A stretch of 64,000 nucleotides of DNA from Candidatus Hydrothermales bacterium (GTDB lineage: Bacteria > Hydrothermota > Hydrothermia > Hydrothermales > JAJRUZ01), in the NCBI GenBank assembly GCA_039630235.1, contig JBCNVI010000001.1:363059-427058 (forward strand), read 5' to 3'. The notes under the pieces were generated by a model. The model searched no databases. It was not told the origin of the DNA and saw only the letters and a program-made list of their open reading frames with translations. Position numbers and translations under genes: made by a program. Within the stretch, counting starts at the first letter, position 1; every line of letters begins with the position of its first letter. Positions 52,464 to 63,807 of the stretch are shown one piece after another.

Positions 52464-53819
52464 TTATTCTCTTGTATTAAGTCTATCACTTTTTGATTTC
52501 TTTGTGTCTTCGATATAAAATAGGTGAGGTAAAAGTTTCCTCTCCCAAGCTTCTTTTGTGAGCATCTCTCTAAATTTTGGGTGAGCTATTTCTATTAAGG
52601 CTTTAGCTCTTTCCCTAATTGATTTACCCCAAAGTTCAGCTACACCGTACTCTGTAACTACGTATCTCACGTCAGCTCTTGTGGTAACAACTCCTGCTCC
52701 ATCTTTTAACTTAGAAACAATCTTTGAGACTGTTTCGTTTTTTGCTGTAGAGGGTATTGCTATTATTGGTTTTCCGTTTTTACTCCAGCCTGCTCCCCTT
52801 ATAAAGTCTACTTGACCACCAAAACCTGAATAAATATATGTTCCAATTGAATCAGAGCAAACTTGTCCTGTTAAATCAACTTCAATAGCAGAATTAACAG
52901 CTACCATGTTGTCATTCCTTGAAATTATAAAGGGATGATTAACATAGTCACAGGGGTGAAGTTCAAAAATTGGGTTGTTATGAGAAAAGTTATAAAGCTC
53001 TTCTGAACCTAAAATAAAGGTACCTATTACCTTACCTGGATGAAGTGTTTTTCTTGAACCAGTTATTGTTCCATCAATTATTCTTTCCATTATTCCATCT
53101 GATATCATCTCAGTGTGGATTCCAAGGTCTTTTTTTCCTTTTATAAACTTTAGGATCGCATTGGGTATTCCACCTATTCCAACCTGTAAAGTTGATCCGT
53201 CATCAATTAGATCAACGACAAACTTGGCTATTTTTTCTTCAACTTCGGTAGGTGTTATTTTCTCAACAGTAAAGAGAGGTTCGTCAACTTCGCAGAGTGC
53301 GGTAATTTGAGAGATATGAACAAAGCAATCTCCTAAGGTTCTTGGCATTCTCCTATTTACCTGTGCAAGGATAATCTTTGCACTCTGAATTGCTGCCTTT
53401 GTAGCTATAACTTCAACTCCTAAGCTTAAAAACCCGTGTTCATCTGGAGGTGAGGTGTGAATTATTGCAACATTAATTTTTATCTTTCCCTCTCTTATCA
53501 TAATTGGAATTTCGTGCAGGTGACATGGAATATATTCGGCGTTTCCTTCATTTACTGCCTCTCTGTCAGCAGGCCCAACAAAGAGAGCTTTATGTATAAA
53601 ATTCTTATAGGTTCCGAACTTTTTAAAGTAATCTTCTCCAATCTGTAAAAGGTGATAGAGTTTAACATTTTCAAGATCTTTCCTTGCCGCAAGGTGTTCT
53701 AAGAAGTACCTTGGAGTGGCAGCATTTCCAGAAATAAACAAAGAATCTCCTGACTTAACATAAGAAATAAGCTCCTCTATGGGCCTTTTCTTCTCGTGAT
53801 ATAGTTTTAAAAAGCTCAT
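52464..53819 (-). CDS. Acetyl-CoA hydrolase/transferase-family protein (4-hydroxybutyrate CoA-transferase-like)
   Basis: 451 aa with an N- and C-terminal AcetylCoA_hydro domain pattern. Confidence 0.7.
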   Translation of the reverse strand: MSFLKLYHEKKRPIEELISYVKSGDSLFISGNAATPRYFLEHLAARKDLENVKLYHLLQIGEDYFKKFGTYKNFIHKALFVGPADREAVNEGNAEYIPCHLHEIPIMIREGKIKINVAIIHTSPPDEHGFLSLGVEVIATKAAIQSAKIILAQVNRRMPRTLGDCFVHISQITALCEVDEPLFTVEKITPTEVEEKIAKFVVDLIDDGSTLQVGIGGIPNAILKFIKGKKDLGIHTEMISDGIMERIIDGTITGSRKTLHPGKVIGTFILGSEELYNFSHNNPIFELHPCDYVNHPFIISRNDNMVAVNSAIEVDLTGQVCSDSIGTYIYSGFGGQVDFIRGAGWSKNGKPIIAIPSTAKNETVSKIVSKLKDGAGVVTTRADVRYVVTEYGVAELWGKSIRERAKALIEIAHPKFREMLTKEAWERKLLPHLFYIEDTKKSKSDRLNTRE

Positions 53820-53834
53820 TTTTTTACTCCTCGA

Positions 53835-54944
53835 TCAGATTGTTGGATAACCTTCACTCCAAGGATGTTTTTTTGTAAATTTACCTTTAAAGGTATAACA
53901 ACCATTCCAAAGGGGTACACACTCTCTTATAACATCGATACCGTCTTTAACAATTCTTTTAAAGTAGGGAAGTAAAGCATTTGAAAGGGCGTGGGAAGCT
54001 GTTCTTGCAACAAAGGATGGTACATTCGGAACACAAAAATGGGTTATACCGAATTCTTTATAAACAAAGCTTTCTGTTGGAGTAAGCCTGGAAGTTTCAC
54101 AGGCTCCACCTTGATCAATAGAAAAATCTATGATAACTGAGCCATTTCTCATAGACTTAACCATCTCCCTTGTTACAATTATTGGTGCCCTTTCACCAGG
54201 AACAAGAACAGCTAAAATAAGAACGTTAGCAAACTTTACAAACTTATAAATATTCTCGTAGGTAGCAAGAGCAGTAACTACTTTGCCACCGAAAATTTCA
54301 TCTATTCTCTCAAGTTTTGATCTTGAAATATCAAGCATGTAGACTGAGGCTCCCAGTCCAAGGAAAGATCTTGCAGCATATGTACCAAGAGTCCCAGCCC
54401 CTATGATCACTACATCAGCTGGTGGAATACCAGGTATCCCTCCAAGCAATATCCCTAGTCCCCCTCTTTCACTTTCAAGAAGTCTTCCAGCAATTTGAGG
54501 AGCAAGTTTTCCTGCAATTTGACTTGATACTCTTAAAACGGGAAGAGTCTCGTCTTCTTCTTGTATTATTTCATAACCAATTGATGTTATTTTCTTTGAA
54601 ACAAAAGTTTCATATATCTCCTTTGGTCTTACGGCAAGATGAAGAAACCCAAAGATAACGTGGTTTTCTTTTAAAAGACGAAGCTCGTCTGTAGAGGGAG
54701 GATTTATTCCAGCAACTATATCTGTTCTCAAAAAAACTTCGTCCCTTGAGTAAACAATATTTACCCCTTTTTGCTTATATTCCTCATCAGAAAAACCTGC
54801 GCTTTCTCCAGCTCCGCTTTCAAGATATATTTCTGCCCCAAGTTCAATTAACTCCTTACATGCTGATGGTGAAAGAGAAACCCTTTTTTCAGGAATGCTG
54901 CTACCCTTTTGTGAAGATGGTATACCTATCTTAATTTTTTCCAA
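53835..54944 (-). CDS. Alanine dehydrogenase/PNT-family NAD-dependent dehydrogenase
   Basis: 369 aa with an AlaDh/PNT N-domain and Rossmann GxGxxG (VVIIGAGTLGTYAA). Confidence 0.6.
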   Translation of the reverse strand: MEKIKIGIPSSQKGSSIPEKRVSLSPSACKELIELGAEIYLESGAGESAGFSDEEYKQKGVNIVYSRDEVFLRTDIVAGINPPSTDELRLLKENHVIFGFLHLAVRPKEIYETFVSKKITSIGYEIIQEEDETLPVLRVSSQIAGKLAPQIAGRLLESERGGLGILLGGIPGIPPADVVIIGAGTLGTYAARSFLGLGASVYMLDISRSKLERIDEIFGGKVVTALATYENIYKFVKFANVLILAVLVPGERAPIIVTREMVKSMRNGSVIIDFSIDQGGACETSRLTPTESFVYKEFGITHFCVPNVPSFVARTASHALSNALLPYFKRIVKDGIDVIRECVPLWNGCYTFKGKFTKKHPWSEGYPTI

Positions 54945-58335: not shown

Positions 58336-58719
58336 TTATACCCTCCTTCTCTTTGGTGGTCTTGTTCCGTTATGTGGTATAGGTGTAACGTCTTTTATTG
58401 CCACAATTTTTAGTCCCTGTGAGTGAAGTGTTCTTAGGGCAGCTTCTCTTCCCTGGCCAGGTCCTTTTAGCCTTACTTCTACTTCTTGAATGCCGAACTC
58501 TTTAACCTTCTTTACGACTTCTTCGGCAGCCTTTGATGCGGCAAAGGGTGTTCCCTTTCTTGTGCCTTTAAAGCCTACTGATCCAGAGGATGCCCAGCAG
58601 AGGGTGTTGCCCTTTTCGTCGGTTACGGTGATTATAGTGTTATTAAAGGTTGATTGTATGTATACGATTGCGAAATTTAAAAATTTCTTTTCCTTCTTTT
58701 TTCTTCCTTTTTTTGCCAT
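58336..58719 (-). CDS. rpsK: 30S ribosomal protein S11
   Basis: 127 aa with the S11 signature ...[16 protein letters not shown]... Confidence 0.9.
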
Positions 58720-59096
58720 TATTTTTCCTTTTTCTTTATTCTTCTAAAGATGTTGCCTCTTGGGCCTTTTCTTGTTCTTGCGTTATGTCTTGTTCTTTGT
58801 CCACGTACGGGTAGTCCAAGTTTATGTCTTATGCCCCTGTAGCATCCGATGTCCATGAGTCTTTTTATGTTTCTTGCAACTTCCATTCTTAGAGCTCCTT
58901 CAACTTTTAGGCCTTCTATGGCGCTTTGGAGTTTACTTATTTCTTCAGGAGATAAGTCCCTAACTTTTTTGTTTGGGTCTACTCCTGTTTTTCTTAATAT
59001 TTCTTTTGAGTTAGATGGACCTATACCGTAAATATAAGTTAAGGCTACTTCTATTTTTTTATTTTTAGGTAAGTCTACACCTGCTATTCGTGCCAT
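58719..59096 (-). CDS. rpsM: 30S ribosomal protein S13
   Basis: 125 aa. [26 protein letters not shown] is the S13 N-terminus. Confidence 0.9.
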
Positions 59097-59098
59097 GA

Positions 59099-59212
59099 TT
59101 AACCTTGTCTTTGCTTATGTTTTGGGTTTTCACATATTACCATTACCCGCCTTTTTCGGCGGATTATTTTGCATTTTGCGCAAATTTTTTTTACAGAACT
59201 TCTCACTTTCAT
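59099..59212 (-). CDS. rpmJ: 50S ribosomal protein L36
   Basis: Not in the ORF track. The minus strand translates to [37 protein letters not shown] with the C-x2-C...C-x4-H zinc ribbon. It sits immediately upstream of rpsM. Confidence 0.85.
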
Positions 59213-59360
59213 AAGTGAAATTTATTAATTATAATAGAAAAAATTACAAAATTCAAGCAAATTAAAACTTTAAATACCAAATTTTCCCATTTTTAATCAA
59301 TAATTTGAAAGGCTTTCACTTTTTTTGTTATACCTGTAGGAGCGCAAAAAGGAAGGAGAT

Positions 59361-59891
59361 ATGAGACCTTTAACATTAATATTTATTTTTTCTTTTTTAT
59401 TTGTTTTTTTAAGATGTTCTGAGTGAAGGCAGAGGACTTCTGCTCAGATACAAAAAATTAAGCTGGATATAAAGATAAATGTAAATATTACTTCAACTCG
59501 GGAGGATGCTGATTTGTATGTGAATAATGTTTATAAGGCAAATACACCTACAGCTACCATTATGGTAAAAAGGCCTCAACCAAAAAAATGGGGTAAAACA
59601 TTCGGAGGTGGTAGAAATGATCATGGTTTCTCAATTATTCAGACAAAGGATGGTGGATATGTAGTAACTGGGTGTATTATAAGGGCTGGTATTGTTCATG
59701 AACCTAATGTATTAGTTTTAAGGTTAGATAAAGATTTTAATAAGTTATGGGAAAAAACTTTAACACTTTGAGATTATTCAGAGGGCTACTCAATTACAAT
59801 AGCAAAAGACGGAGTATATGTTTTAACTGGTTATCAAAAATCTCCAGGATATACCGGAAAAGATCTTATTGTTATAAAACTATATGACTAA
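59361..59891 (+). pseudogene. Remnant of an SBBP (beta-propeller repeat) lipoprotein gene with two in-frame TGA codons
   Basis: A single frame reads MRPLTLIFIFSFLFVFLRCSE-TGA-RQRT...KKWGKTFGGGRNDHGFSIIQTKDGGYVVTG...KLWEKTLTL-TGA-DYSEGYSITIAKDGVYVLTGY...IVIKLYD. The SBBP motif (GG..D.g.si..t.DGgyv.tG) appears twice. The second TGA aligns with a Gly of the first repeat. Only ~176 codons remain of a normally much longer protein. Confidence 0.55.
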
Positions 59892-60008
59892 TTAATATAT
59901 AAAGGAACTTTACAAAATCGCATTTGATGTATAATCCAATAACCAACTACTTCCTGAAATAATTGAAAAATACCCCTCTGTAAGGATAAAGATTGAAGAG
60001 TTAATTGA

Positions 60009-60912
60009 AAAAAAGCAATTACAAAGGAAGAAATAAAGGAAATCTTACTTGAATTAGGGGCACAGAGGGAAGAAAATAATGAAAGATTTGGGGAAATTAA
60101 TAAGAGGTTTGAAGAAATCAATAAAAGATTCGAAGATATTAATAGAAGATTCGAGGATATTAATAAAAGATTTGAAGCGGTTGATAGAAGGTTTGAGGAT
60201 ATCAATAGGAGATTTGAGGAAATTAACAAGAGGTTTGAAGAAGTTAATAGGAGATTTGAAGAACTTACTTTAAGGATGGAAAGCGGATTTAAGACTTTAA
60301 GAAAAGTAATTTCGGTAATTGGTTCAAGATGAGGAATGGGTGCAGAGGAAGCATTTAGAAAAGGTTTTGAAGAAATTTTATCTGAGCTTGATTATAAAGT
60401 TATAAAATGGAAAAAGTTTGATAAAAATTGTGAGTTTTTTATATATCCTCGCACTGCTGAAATAGATATAATCATAAAGGACAAAAGAAAAATAGCAATA
60501 GAGGTAAAGTCTTCTCTTACTGTCGGCGATGTTGAAAATTTTGAAAGGTCAATAAGATTCTATGAAAAAGAGGAGGGTGAAAAGATTGAAAAGAAGGGAA
60601 TTGTTTCAATTATTCCCCTCTCCTCAGGCAGTGGAATACGCTAGAGATTTAAATATAAGATTGATTAGAGGACTTGAAAAAGCAAAGGACTATTTCGAAG
60701 AAGATATAGGCTGAGACAAAGAGAAGTTTAAAAAAGATGTAGATATAAAGCTTATCTCCATATGATCTTATAAAACAGAGTATATTGTTGAAATTCTGAA
60801 ATTTTCTTTTGACGTATATAAACTTCTCACAAAAGCATACGATAAAGGCGATGAAAAGATACCAAAAAATTTCCCTTTCTTATTGAAATTCATTTGATGC
60901 AGGTTGCTATAA
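60009..60912 (+). pseudogene. Disrupted coiled-coil / putative PD-(D/E)xK (DUF3782-like) gene
   Basis: Frame 3 is open from 60009 but has no ATG, GTG or TTG. It encodes heptad repeats, then ...KVISVIGSR-TGA(60330)-GMGAEEAFRKGFEEIL...EIDIIIKDKRKIAIEVKSS (a D...E-x-K nuclease-like core). Protein-like sequence continues in frame 1 (SPQAVEYARDLNIRLIRGLEKAKDYFEEDIG-TGA-...) after an apparent shift in a C/T run near 60615, with two more in-frame TGAs. The family assignment is from memory. Confidence 0.4.
60078..60266 (+). repeat. Nine tandem copies of a 21-bp unit (consensus AATARRAGRTTYGARGAWRTT)
   Basis: Direct inspection: units begin at 60078, 60099, 60120, 60141, 60162, 60183, 60204, 60225 and 60246. 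One frame encodes the heptad (I/V)N(K/R)RFE(E/D) x9. The minus-strand ORF MLISSNLLL... is its low-complexity mirror. Confidence 0.9.
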
Positions 60913-60913
60913 T

Positions 60914-60990
60914 TTACAGGTCATAAAACTGGACAGTGACGGTAATAAAATATGGGATAAGACTTTGGGTGAAAATAAAAAAGAAATTTA
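60914..60990 (+). pseudogene. Second SBBP-repeat fragment
   Basis: Encodes LQVIKLDSDGNKIWDKTLGENKKEI*, which matches the inter-blade segment (vvKLdsdGnllWsktfGG) of SBBP repeats. It is separated from the first remnant by the coiled-coil/DUF3782-like gene. Confidence 0.35.
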
Positions 60991-61002
60991 GAACTTTGAA
61001 AA

Positions 61003-61563
61003 CTAATCTTTATAAAAATTGGGAAATACGGGATTAGATAGATAAACAAATAACAGTGTCTCTAATTTTTCTTCTATTTTCTTGCTTATACTCTTTACAT
61101 ATCCTACTTGTTCAAATACGACTTTTCCATCTCTATCAATTATCAAATGAGTTGGAAGGGCAAAGATTTTAAATTTCCTGTGAAGATAAGTATCATTAAT
61201 TGCTATAACATATTTAAAATCTCTCTTTTTAAAAAATTCTCTACTCTGCTTTTCCCTTCCCTTGTAATTGCAATAAACATAACTTTTTTATTATCCTTGA
61301 ACTTTCTAACTAACTTGTTAAGTTCCGAAATTTCCTCTTTACATGGTTTACATCCTGTACCTCCAAAAATTTAAAACTATTATCTTACCCTTGTTTTCTC
61401 TATACTTAAACACAGTCCCATCAAGTAAAGTTAACTCAAAATCTATTACTCTCTTTACTTTTTTAAAAATTTCCTCCTCAAATTTTTTTATTTCCCTCTC
61501 GTAATTTTTTCCACATATTTCCTTTAATGTATCCAGCTGAGTGGAATCACCATGATAAAACAC
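61003..61563 (-). pseudogene. TlpA/ResA-like thioredoxin-fold gene with at least two frameshifts
   Basis: Minus strand: MFYHGDSTQLDTLKEICGKNY...GKIIVLNFW, then a 1-nt shift into GTGCKPCKEEISELNKLVRKFKDNKKVMFIAITREGKS (CxxC active site), then a second shift into DFKYVIAINDTYLHRKFKIFALPTHLIIDRDGKVVFEQVGY. The ORF track shows only 71-aa and 88-aa pieces. Confidence 0.5.
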
Positions 61564-61592
61564 TAAATAAGGATAAGCAAGCTTTGACTTTT

Positions 61593-62566
61593 CTATTTCA
61601 CCTTTTTATACGCCATCCTTGCATATGAGCTTAAAACCTCCTGCTCAACCTCCTCTAAACTTTTACTCTCAACTATCTCTCCTATATAAAAATAGGCAGA
61701 ATCAAACTCATTTTTACTCTGATAAAATAAAGAAAGTTGAAAATACACACTTTCTTTTAACTCTGTCCCCCCATTTTGTTTTATATTTCTGAAAACTTTC
61801 ATAATTAAGATCATAAGGGTAATGATAAAAAGCAAAAGACCTCCTCACATAAATGGGGTCATTTAAAAGTTTCCTTGCCTTATGTAACCAGTAATGATAT
61901 AAATTTTTGTATTCCTCTTCTTCTAACCTGTAGCTTAACATATTCACATAAATAAGGATTTCTTCCAAATCCTCAAATCCTTCTTTTTCTCTTTCTCTAA
62001 GCCATTTAATCAAACTATCAGTGTGAAAATTAAGATAAATAAACTTTTGAGCCGAAAAAACTCTAAACTCAGGGATCAAAGGATCAATTTTCTTGTCTTT
62101 TATATACAAATAAAACTTTCCACTCTCCTCCTTTAAAAGATATTCATTAAGCTTATTTACAAAGTCATAGTGGTTTTTATAATGTTCTCTTTCTTTTAAA
62201 AGAAGTGCTTCAAATTTTTTAAAGTTAGGGAATAGAGATTTTTCATAAAAATAAGAAAAGGCAAGTAAAGAGAAGGCATGAGGCGCCGGCCTTTTTTCTA
62301 TATAGTATATTACATAAAACGTTGAGTCAAAAATGAATTTATCTTCAAAAAAGAAAATAATAAGGGCAGTATTCTTATCAGATGAAACTAAAGAGATTAC
62401 ACTTTTATTCTCAATTTTTTCTACATGAGAAATTAACCTATAAGGATCACCACCTGATAACTCAAGCCACCAAAAATAACCTGAAAATCTTTTGGATAAA
62501 GTTATAGTGATCGTATCATTAGGAGTTGGCCTTTCAGGATCTATCTCTAAGACAAATTTTTTTCAT
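61593..62566 (-). pseudogene. Hypothetical protein gene interrupted by frameshifts (A7 run after the ATG, and near 61800)
   Basis: Minus strand: ATG at 62566-62564 is followed by AAAAAAA. The long open frame (KKFVLEIDPERPTPNDTITITLSKRFSGYFWWLELSGGDPYRL...FYLYIKDKKID...) is -1 relative to that ATG and has no start of its own except an internal TTG. The C-terminal part switches frame again into the 61593..61835 ORF. Confidence 0.45.
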
Positions 62567-62706
62567 GTTTATAAGACAAAATAAAAAATATTGATAAAAT
62601 AAAAGATTTCATGCTGATTTATATTATAAGAGAACAGGCTTCTCTCCCTCTGTCTCTAGCCTATCTTTTCTGACCCTATTTTCTCTAAAATATTCTTTTA
62701 TCAGTC

Positions 62707-63807
62707 TTAAAAAACGTATCTTAATGAAAATCTGTAATTTTCAGTTTCAAAATCATAAATGGGAGAGTCAACACCTATATCAAAGTAAAACTTTCCAAGT
62801 CTTATCCCCCCTCCGTACATAAAGCCAATCCTCGCCCCCTCTATATCCAAAAAGTAACCGACCCTCAACGAAACAAAATTATAATAAGTAAACTCTAAAC
62901 CGTAGTGCTTCCAAGCCTCTGCCCAAACATAATTAAAGCCCTTTTCCTCCCAATCCTCAAAAAGCTTTACTAAAATCTTAGTTATATCTGAAGAAATCGT
63001 TAACTTTATAGCATCTGACGTATAAACCGGCAAAGCAACTCCTACTTTTAAAGTCCTTGGAAGCGGATCCTCTCCTCCACCCTTTCTTGTATACCTTATA
63101 CCAGGACCAAAATTTAAAAGAGAAAAACCAAAGGACATACCAGGCAAAAGCTTTGACTCCGGCCTAAAACTTAATTTGTATAAAAGCCCAAAATCAAAGG
63201 CATAGGTAATTCCAGTTCCCCCTCCACCTGACTCAGGAAAAACCCTTTTAACAAGCCAATCAGGAGCAAGAAAAGAATAAATAAACTTTGACCCTATACC
63301 GACACCTAAATCCTTAAAGACCCTGTAACCATAATTTAAAGTAACGGCAAAGTCAAAATTTACAAACCTTGCTATAGGCGCATCACTACCTTCTATATAA
63401 GCCTCTGTCTCCCCTGTAGTTAAATAAATGACATTTCCACCTATGGCACCTAGCTCACCAAGTGGATTAACAAAACCGAAAAACTCATAGTACATATCTG
63501 GCCAAAGCCCTGTCAGCCAGTTAGAATGCTGAAGCGAAACTTCAAGACTTTTTATAAAAGGCAAACCCCCTGGATTATAAAAAGTACAAGTAGCATCATC
63601 AGAAACAGCTGTAAAGGCAGCTCCCATACCTACTGCCCTTGCCCCAGGAAAAATCGTTAAAAACACAACAGCCGCATCATTAGCCGACGAAAAAAGAATA
63701 GAAGGCATCACTAAAAAATAAATAAACTTAGTTACCTTTTTCATAACCCTTTTAATTATAATTTTAAAATTTACTAAAATCAAACCTATGAAGATAATTG
63801 CACTCAT
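62707..63807 (-). CDS. PorV/PorQ-family outer-membrane beta-barrel protein (T9SS-associated)
   Basis: 366 aa with a signal peptide. FPGARAVGMGAAFTAVSDDATCTFYNPGGL matches the PorV/LptO family signature (GARA.GMGGAFtAvaDDasa.yWNPAGL). C-terminal ...RYVF. Confidence 0.6.
   Translation of the reverse strand: MSAIIFIGLILVNFKIIIKRVMKKVTKFIYFLVMPSILFSSANDAAVVFLTIFPGARAVGMGAAFTAVSDDATCTFYNPGGLPFIKSLEVSLQHSNWLTGLWPDMYYEFFGFVNPLGELGAIGGNVIYLTTGETEAYIEGSDAPIARFVNFDFAVTLNYGYRVFKDLGVGIGSKFIYSFLAPDWLVKRVFPESGGGGTGITYAFDFGLLYKLSFRPESKLLPGMSFGFSLLNFGPGIRYTRKGGGEDPLPRTLKVGVALPVYTSDAIKLTISSDITKILVKLFEDWEEKGFNYVWAEAWKHYGLEFTYYNFVSLRVGYFLDIEGARIGFMYGGGIRLGKFYFDIGVDSPIYDFETENYRFSLRYVF

Follow-up and report, generated by a model that had tools for sequence, protein, structure and literature searches.

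Introduction

Bacterial pseudogenes combine homology to intact genes with premature stops, indels in homopolymers, the loss of 5' ends or of whole domains, and lesions that vary between strains. Several systems are known in which TGA is no longer a stop codon. Under genetic code 4 it is read as Trp, in the Mycoplasmatales and in some insect endosymbionts, and TGA-recoded phages have also been described; under genetic code 25, used by Gracilibacteria/Absconditabacteria, it is read as Gly. TGA is, moreover, generally the leakiest of the stop codons. A further point of reference is a protein family of thermophilic bacteria and archaea (DUF3782/PDDEXK_10), whose members share an N-terminal helix, RFE(E/D)IN heptads, a GSRWG motif and, at the C terminus, a PD-(D/E)XK-like domain.

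We analyzed a 64-kb stretch of DNA (hereafter the window, at its full length) from a standard-code 'Candidatus Hydrothermales' (WOR-3) metagenome-assembled genome (MAG). The S13 and RpoA proteins that the window encodes are identical to NCBI entries from a 'Candidatus Hydrothermales' MAG. A prior sequence-only reading of the window had drawn attention to three protein-like reading frames interrupted by TGA and by no other stop codon, and offered as explanations foreign DNA in which TGA is recoded, genes recoded on the spot, or decay by chance. The results presented below make it very probable that the segment from 59.3 to 62.5 kb is a small island made up of fragments of dead genes, within a Hydrothermales (WOR-3) genome that uses the standard code, and situated at a break in the rpmJ operon.

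Results

Stop codon usage in the window

Under the standard code the window is tightly filled with long ORFs, all 53 of which are intact, and the interval from about 59.2 to 62.7 kb is the sole part without them. The terminal stops of these 53 ORFs are TAA in 33 cases, TGA in 11 and TAG in nine, which bears out the 3:1 preference for TAA over TGA previously counted by hand. TGA ends 11 of the 53 ORFs, and in eight of these 11 it forms an ATGA overlap with the start of the next gene; it is therefore a working terminator in this genome.

Beyond the ORF-terminal TGAs the same frame continues only briefly, with one exception. After the terminal TGA of the ORF at 53835-54944 (minus strand), the frame stays open for more than 100 further codons. 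Read-through at 53819-53835 was considered and rejected: the next gene (52464-53819) is in phase by chance and starts five codons later. No other ORF pair of the window gave any hint of read-through. ARAGORN, run on the 64-kb window, found no tRNA genes. The GC content of the flagged region (0.305) matches that of its host (0.326 for the whole window), so that the comparison of composition proposed as a sign of foreign DNA lends that idea no support.

An island at a ribosomal-protein operon break

The intact genes on either side of the island are:

59099-59212, minus strand: rpmJ, encoding ribosomal protein L36; no intact gene lies between it and the island (ORF list)
62707-63807, minus strand: intact gene for a 366-residue PorV-like outer-membrane protein (type IX secretion), flanking the island (Pfam PorV, 8.7e-14)

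A WOR-3 relative (contig L003, 4840-8369) carries the order secY-adk-map-infA-rpmJ-rpsM. tblastn against the 64-kb window found no secY, adk, map or infA. Set against the order in the relative, their absence from the window indicates that the ribosomal-protein super-operon is broken just upstream of rpmJ (window 59099-59360) and that the island occupies the breakpoint. A scan of genome contigs for S13 returned no sister genome, the matches being distant relatives at no more than 70% identity.

A decayed beta-propeller gene

Two pieces of a beta-propeller gene were found within the island:

59361-59891, plus strand: what is left of a secreted protein with beta-propeller repeats (SBBP/DUF5122 type), namely two blades, a signal peptide and a weakly PEGA-like stretch (translation, phmmer, profile)
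60881-60991, plus strand: a further beta-propeller fragment, the third, reading Y*NSFDAGCYNLQVIKLDSDGNKIWDKTLGENKKEI (profile HMM; tblastn queries P0121 and P0122)

The first piece contains in-frame TGAs at 59424 and 59769 and ends in mid-blade at the TAA at 59889-59891. A repeat profile HMM and column counts were drawn from 1297 repeat instances in 151 homologues; the remnant scores 147 bits against this profile. phmmer returned 33,614 representative homologues, typically many-bladed, of which P0239, the window's own fragment, alone exceeds 45% identity; a word-index search returned just two. No close orthologue that would show which codons originally stood at 59424, 59769 and 60884 was present in any collection searched, the metagenome contigs contributing one remote match at 45% identity. 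Pfam gave no match to SBBP (PF06739) in the remnant at E <= 1, its sole match being PEGA (E = 0.084), and one homologue (P0122) matches the DUF5122 beta-propeller (PF17164). The description 'SBBP-like' is thus a matter of resemblance and not of demonstrated membership.

No homologue aligned at the TGA at 59424. The TGA at 59769 falls in a variable column in which Ser (24.8%), Thr (14.7%), Ala (10.1%), Gly (7.5%) and Trp (1.0%, 9/919) all occur (n = 919). The sequence-only reading had paired this codon with Gly, and the pairing is correct with respect to the gene's own first repeat (FGGG against TL*), but it does not extend to the family, where Gly makes up 7.5% of the column over those 919 homologue repeats. 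The conserved GG immediately before the TGA is replaced by TL in blade 2, which may reflect relaxed constraint on that blade.

The third fragment scores 26.2 bits against the profile (E = 1.8e-9 among six frames) in a frame other than the one previously read, and terminates at the TAG at 60989-60991. Its in-frame TGA, at 60884-60886, had been missed; it lies opposite a conserved Thr (641/852, 75%). The TGA at 60895 is within the fragment and out of its frame. What is left of the gene is two blades and one partial blade, against many in its homologues.

A DUF3782 gene between the propeller pieces

Between the two propeller pieces sits the remnant of a different gene, followed by a short tail:

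59950-60714, plus strand: DUF3782 + PD-(D/E)XK_10 pseudogene (Pfam, homologue alignment, nucleotide alignment to L083, tblastn)
60027-60295, plus strand: ten tandem units of 21 nt that encode, in the N-terminal part of DUF3782, a coiled coil of (K/R)RFE(E/D)IN heptads (repeat search, family D1)
60715-60868, no strand assigned: unassigned tail after the DUF3782 stop, with a TGA at 60763-60765 in the frame of the earlier reader; no coding evidence

tblastn matches to DUF3782 homologues are broken up over three frames. Once these frames are repaired, the translation matches both PF12644 (DUF3782; 55.3 bits, cut-off 24.4) and PF07788 (PDDEXK_10; 52.7 bits, cut-off 21.2). The repaired protein has 404 homologues, the best of which belong to WOR-3/Hydrothermales, are 68-76% identical to it and cover 97% of its sequence. 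Alignment to the closest intact gene fetched (L083:6001-6780, from the WOR-3 MAG GCA_039804025.1) revealed lesions in the window copy: the first ~17 codons have no counterpart, an A8 run is reduced to A7 at about 60008-60014, and one base has been inserted at about 60605-60612.

The TGA at 60330-60332 occupies the position of W131 in the motif GSRWG, which is near-invariant: in an alignment of 33 homologues and the window copy, conservation in this column reaches at least 90%. The intact gene has TGG opposite this TGA; taken with the indels and the absent 5' codons, this points to a TGG-to-TGA transition in a gene already disabled in several ways. The TGA at 60712-60714 lies four codons short of the end of the intact L083 gene, where homologues stop, and it is the natural stop of the DUF3782 gene.

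DUF3782 homologues differ widely in how many heptad repeats they carry, and the heptad was also observed in unrelated short membrane-anchored proteins (P0044, P0087, P0100 and others). Matches to 'KRFEDIN' in proteins of 146-207 residues were considered as DUF3782 genes cut at the same TGA, and were rejected as unrelated membrane-anchored coiled-coil proteins. An exact look-up of the 102-residue ORF at 60336-60641 gave no match. Among viruses, no relatives of the DUF3782 copy were found in the INPHARED phages or in IMG/VR, the lone weak phage match being confined to the coiled-coil repeats.

A search for target-site duplications and for inverted or terminal repeats flanking the DUF3782 insert found nothing convincing. 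The only shared flank is an 11-nt sequence, GT(T/C)ATAAAACT, and in each of two blades it codes for the conserved VIKL motif. Insertion of the gene as a mobile element, considered as a candidate, is not supported, since the flanking repeats are unconvincing.

For the tail (60715-60909, 65 codons), no homologues were found at E <= 10, no similarity was detected to the DNA downstream of the intact gene in L083, and upstream of 60881 there was no match to the propeller profile. In Markov shuffles a frame of this length free of TAA and TAG arises with p = 0.022 for the given frame and p = 0.15 for any of the six. Since homologues and profile matches are absent and the open frame is not significant, the TGA at 60763 does not lie in a supported coding frame.

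A frameshifted redoxin gene on the opposite strand

The remainder of the island is taken up by a third gene:

61003-62450, minus strand: frameshifted pseudogene with a helical, TPR-like N-terminal region and an AhpC/TSA-redoxin (TlpA-like) domain (three-frame translation)

Its reconstruction involves four frame switches, has no recognizable start codon and needs no nonsense codon, which makes it a separate, independent pseudogene beside the flagged region. The repaired protein matches AhpC-TSA (3e-19) and Redoxin (2e-15) over residues 333-454, across two repaired junctions. At least two of the frameshifts are confirmed, and the other two would follow from continuing open frames alone.

The inventory of TGA codons

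All frames were translated over 58.5-61.8 kb. Four of the TGAs listed in the sequence-only reading (59424-59426, 59769-59771, 60330-60332 and 60712-60714) are placed exactly as claimed, while those given as 60769 and 60901 are some 6 nt off, the true sites being 60763-60765 and 60895-60897. The three frames described as protein-like are not three intact genes, as the DUF3782 gene aligns only after two frameshift repairs. Nor do the three TGAs assigned to the downstream frame belong together: 60712 is a natural terminator, 60763 lies in a tail free of homologues, and 60895 is out of the propeller frame. It is true that no TAA or TAG occurs within the segments as delimited (59361-59888, 60021-60641 and 60562-60909), yet the statement that only TGA occurs inside them is partly circular, because the segments are themselves bounded by a TAA (59889), a TAG (60642), a TAA (60910) or frameshifts. 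The genuine premature stops are thus those at 59424, 59769, 60330 and 60884.

Independent assemblies and strain differences

Logan contigs from two runs offered an independent view of the region. L001 (SRR28200751) spans 58340-62263 at 99.9% identity to the window and has all of the TGAs, and L002 (SRR28200752) spans 58709-59682 and reproduces the TGA at 59424. The A7 frameshift of the DUF3782 remnant is likewise reproduced in the Logan contigs. Over 3.9 kb the window and L001 differ at just four positions, three of which fall inside the dead DUF3782 gene and within 54 nt of one another (in L001, +A at 60564, -T at 60610 and C>T at 60617). Two of these are frameshifting indels, so that the lesions vary between close strains; given the indels at 60564 and 60610, the 3' frameshift lies at different sites in the window strain and in L001. 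The cluster at 60564-60617 could stem from a relaxation of constraint, from gene conversion by a paralogue, or from noise in the assemblies. The lesions, the homologies, the service of TGA as a stop and their confirmation at the level of strains are all direct observations.

The stored gene calls for L001 pass through in-frame TGAs (L001:1620-1988, equal to window 60276-60644, and L001:2373-2750, equal to window 59514-59891). These appear to result from a TGA-sense model picked by the gene caller for a short, pseudogene-rich contig and not to constitute evidence of recoding. TGA-sense calls on short contigs are an annotation artefact with the capacity to seed false claims of recoding.

Discussion

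Decay of three genes

Homology to intact genes, together with lesions that go beyond a single type of codon, was found for the DUF3782, redoxin and propeller remnants alike. Three genes are thus in decay, through events whose order is inferred. Of the secreted propeller-repeat protein, two blades and, apart from them, a partial blade are left. The DUF3782/PD-(D/E)XK gene, caught between the propeller pieces, is truncated at its 5' end, frameshifted twice and altered from Trp to stop, and the TPR-like/redoxin gene on the minus strand has multiple frameshifts. The in-frame TGAs comprise ordinary nonsense mutations, one natural terminator and two codons in unsupported frames. Judged from the sequence, the fragments are probably not expressed, nothing would be decoded through the TGAs, and the region would be without function.

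Of the explanations first offered for the TGAs, it is decay that the evidence supports, and recoding, whether of foreign DNA or of local genes, is contradicted by the mixture of residues opposite the TGAs, the frameshifts, the truncations and the TGA terminators of the genome. In the alignments the TGAs face gaps or a mixture of residues, and indels also interrupt these genes; both had been named beforehand as outcomes that would speak against recoding. On the aligned columns, no single reassignment, to Trp or to Gly, fits the TGA sites, and recoding cannot rescue the frameshifts.

Why only TGA?

An oddity left over is that four of the four genuine premature stops are TGA. We modeled new nonsense codons as single-base substitutions acting on the codon usage of this genome, letting both the transition/transversion ratio and the GC-to-AT bias range over 1-4, and obtained an expected TGA share of 21-29%. 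Naive probabilities are ~0.002-0.007 for four of four and ~0.01-0.02 for three of three; these values, though not trivial, are post hoc because the pattern itself led to the flagging of the region, and they rest on four events. The uniformity of the premature stops is best read as chance combined with post-hoc selection of the pattern. We think it improbable that the exclusivity of TGA has a cause other than chance, such as a WOR-3-related donor of the TGA=Trp type, or leaky TGA termination that spared TGA-interrupted genes for longer in this thermophile. A TGA bias that held across the whole genome would suggest leaky UGA termination or a recoded WOR-3 relative. Either would be of moderate interest if true, and nothing found here requires either.

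Alternative explanations

Several rivals to decay merit consideration. Firstly, the fragments may derive from a donor that read TGA as Trp (a bacterium or phage of the code-4 type), could not be expressed in the present host, and were later frameshifted. Such an origin predicts exactly what is seen at 60330, the sole strongly informative site, where the TGA stands at a near-invariant Trp; it would also account for premature in-frame stops that are TGA in all four cases, and a gene caller did settle on a TGA-sense model for the short contig L001. The remaining sites do not conform: Trp makes up 1% of the column at 59769, and that at 60884 is 75% Thr. Of the five conserved Trp positions in the remnants, four have TGG and one has TGA, unlike what an AT-rich TGA=Trp donor would leave, and the nearest DUF3782 relatives (68-76%) are standard-code WOR-3/Hydrothermales genes with TGG at the site. 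No phage or viral relatives were found in INPHARED or IMG/VR, and the GC content matches the host. Reading TGA as sense, furthermore, still does not yield intact genes, as the two frameshifts, the 17 absent N-terminal codons and the reduction to two blades and a partial one all persist. TGA does terminate genes here, namely 11 of the 53 ORFs and, at 60712, the DUF3782 gene itself. We consequently regard a TGA=Trp donor as very unlikely.

Secondly, the stops and frameshifts may be errors introduced in sequencing or assembling the MAG. Short homopolymers coincide with two of the indel sites (A7 at about 60008; A5 against A6 at 60564), and the window and L001 assemblies differ at 60564, 60610 and 60617. 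DUF3782 genes are also numerous in WOR-3 MAGs, with two on one 51,277-bp contig (P0015 and P0020), and confusion between paralogues is possible in principle. Such errors would, however, need to be confined to 3 kb of a 64-kb window in which the other 53 ORFs are intact, and all of the TGAs, like the A7 frameshift, recur in Logan contigs from two different runs. An artefact is, on this basis, highly improbable.

Thirdly, the genes may still function by local read-through or recoding, whether through leaky termination, a suppressor tRNA or selenocysteine. The general leakiness of TGA and the strong protein-like character that the frames retain are the attractions of this idea. It asks for function from a DUF3782 gene that lacks a start and has two frameshifts, and from a propeller reduced to two blades and a fragment, in a locus where two strains differ by further frameshifting indels. 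Rfam searches of 58500-63000 (E <= 1) found no SECIS or other element bar one chance lncRNA match, and no tRNA was found in the window. The columns aligned to the TGAs are Trp, Ser/Thr/Ala and Thr, and are not rich in Cys, which together with the lack of a SECIS speaks against selenoproteins in particular. Function maintained in this way seems hardly credible to us.

Finally, a reading of TGA as Gly in these genes (the code-25 type, as in Gracilibacteria/SR1) has a negligible chance of being correct, since its one point of agreement, the Gly of the gene's own first repeat opposite 59769, is offset by a column in which Gly accounts for 7.5-10% (919-1270 repeat instances), by a near-invariant Trp column at 60330 and a Thr opposite 60884, by a host that terminates with TGA, and by frameshifts that it leaves unexplained.

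Comparison with known systems

Very probable decay at this locus carries a caution for the annotation of similar data. Interruptions by TGA alone in an AT-rich genome mimic stop-codon reassignment, and an automatic gene caller was fooled by them here. It is the columns of homologues, the frameshifts and the genome's own TGA terminators that, in combination, show ordinary decay.

Set beside other bacterial pseudogenes, the remnants share each of the hallmarks given above: homology to intact genes, premature stops, homopolymer indels, a lost 5' end and lost domains, and strain-variable lesions. They differ in nothing substantial; all that is unusual is that four of four premature stops are TGA and that several dead genes cluster at the breakpoint of a ribosomal-protein operon. 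The resemblance to code 4 and to TGA-recoded phages consists of AT-rich DNA and one TGA at a near-invariant Trp. Unlike those systems, the host terminates with TGA, the other TGAs align with Thr or with variable residues, conserved Trp codons are mostly TGG, the genes are frameshifted, no suppressor tRNA was seen in the window, and no recoded or viral relatives were found. With code 25 the locus has in common one TGA that matches a Gly in the adjacent repeat of the same gene, whereas family-wide the column is just 7.5-10% Gly and the best-constrained TGA site demands Trp. At the level of the protein, the central remnant resembles the DUF3782/PDDEXK_10 proteins of thermophilic bacteria and archaea, whose N-terminal helix, RFE(E/D)IN heptads, GSRWG motif and PD-(D/E)XK-like C-terminal domain are all recovered once the frames are repaired; in contrast to those proteins, the copy in the window is dead, being truncated at its 5' end, frameshifted twice and altered from Trp to stop.
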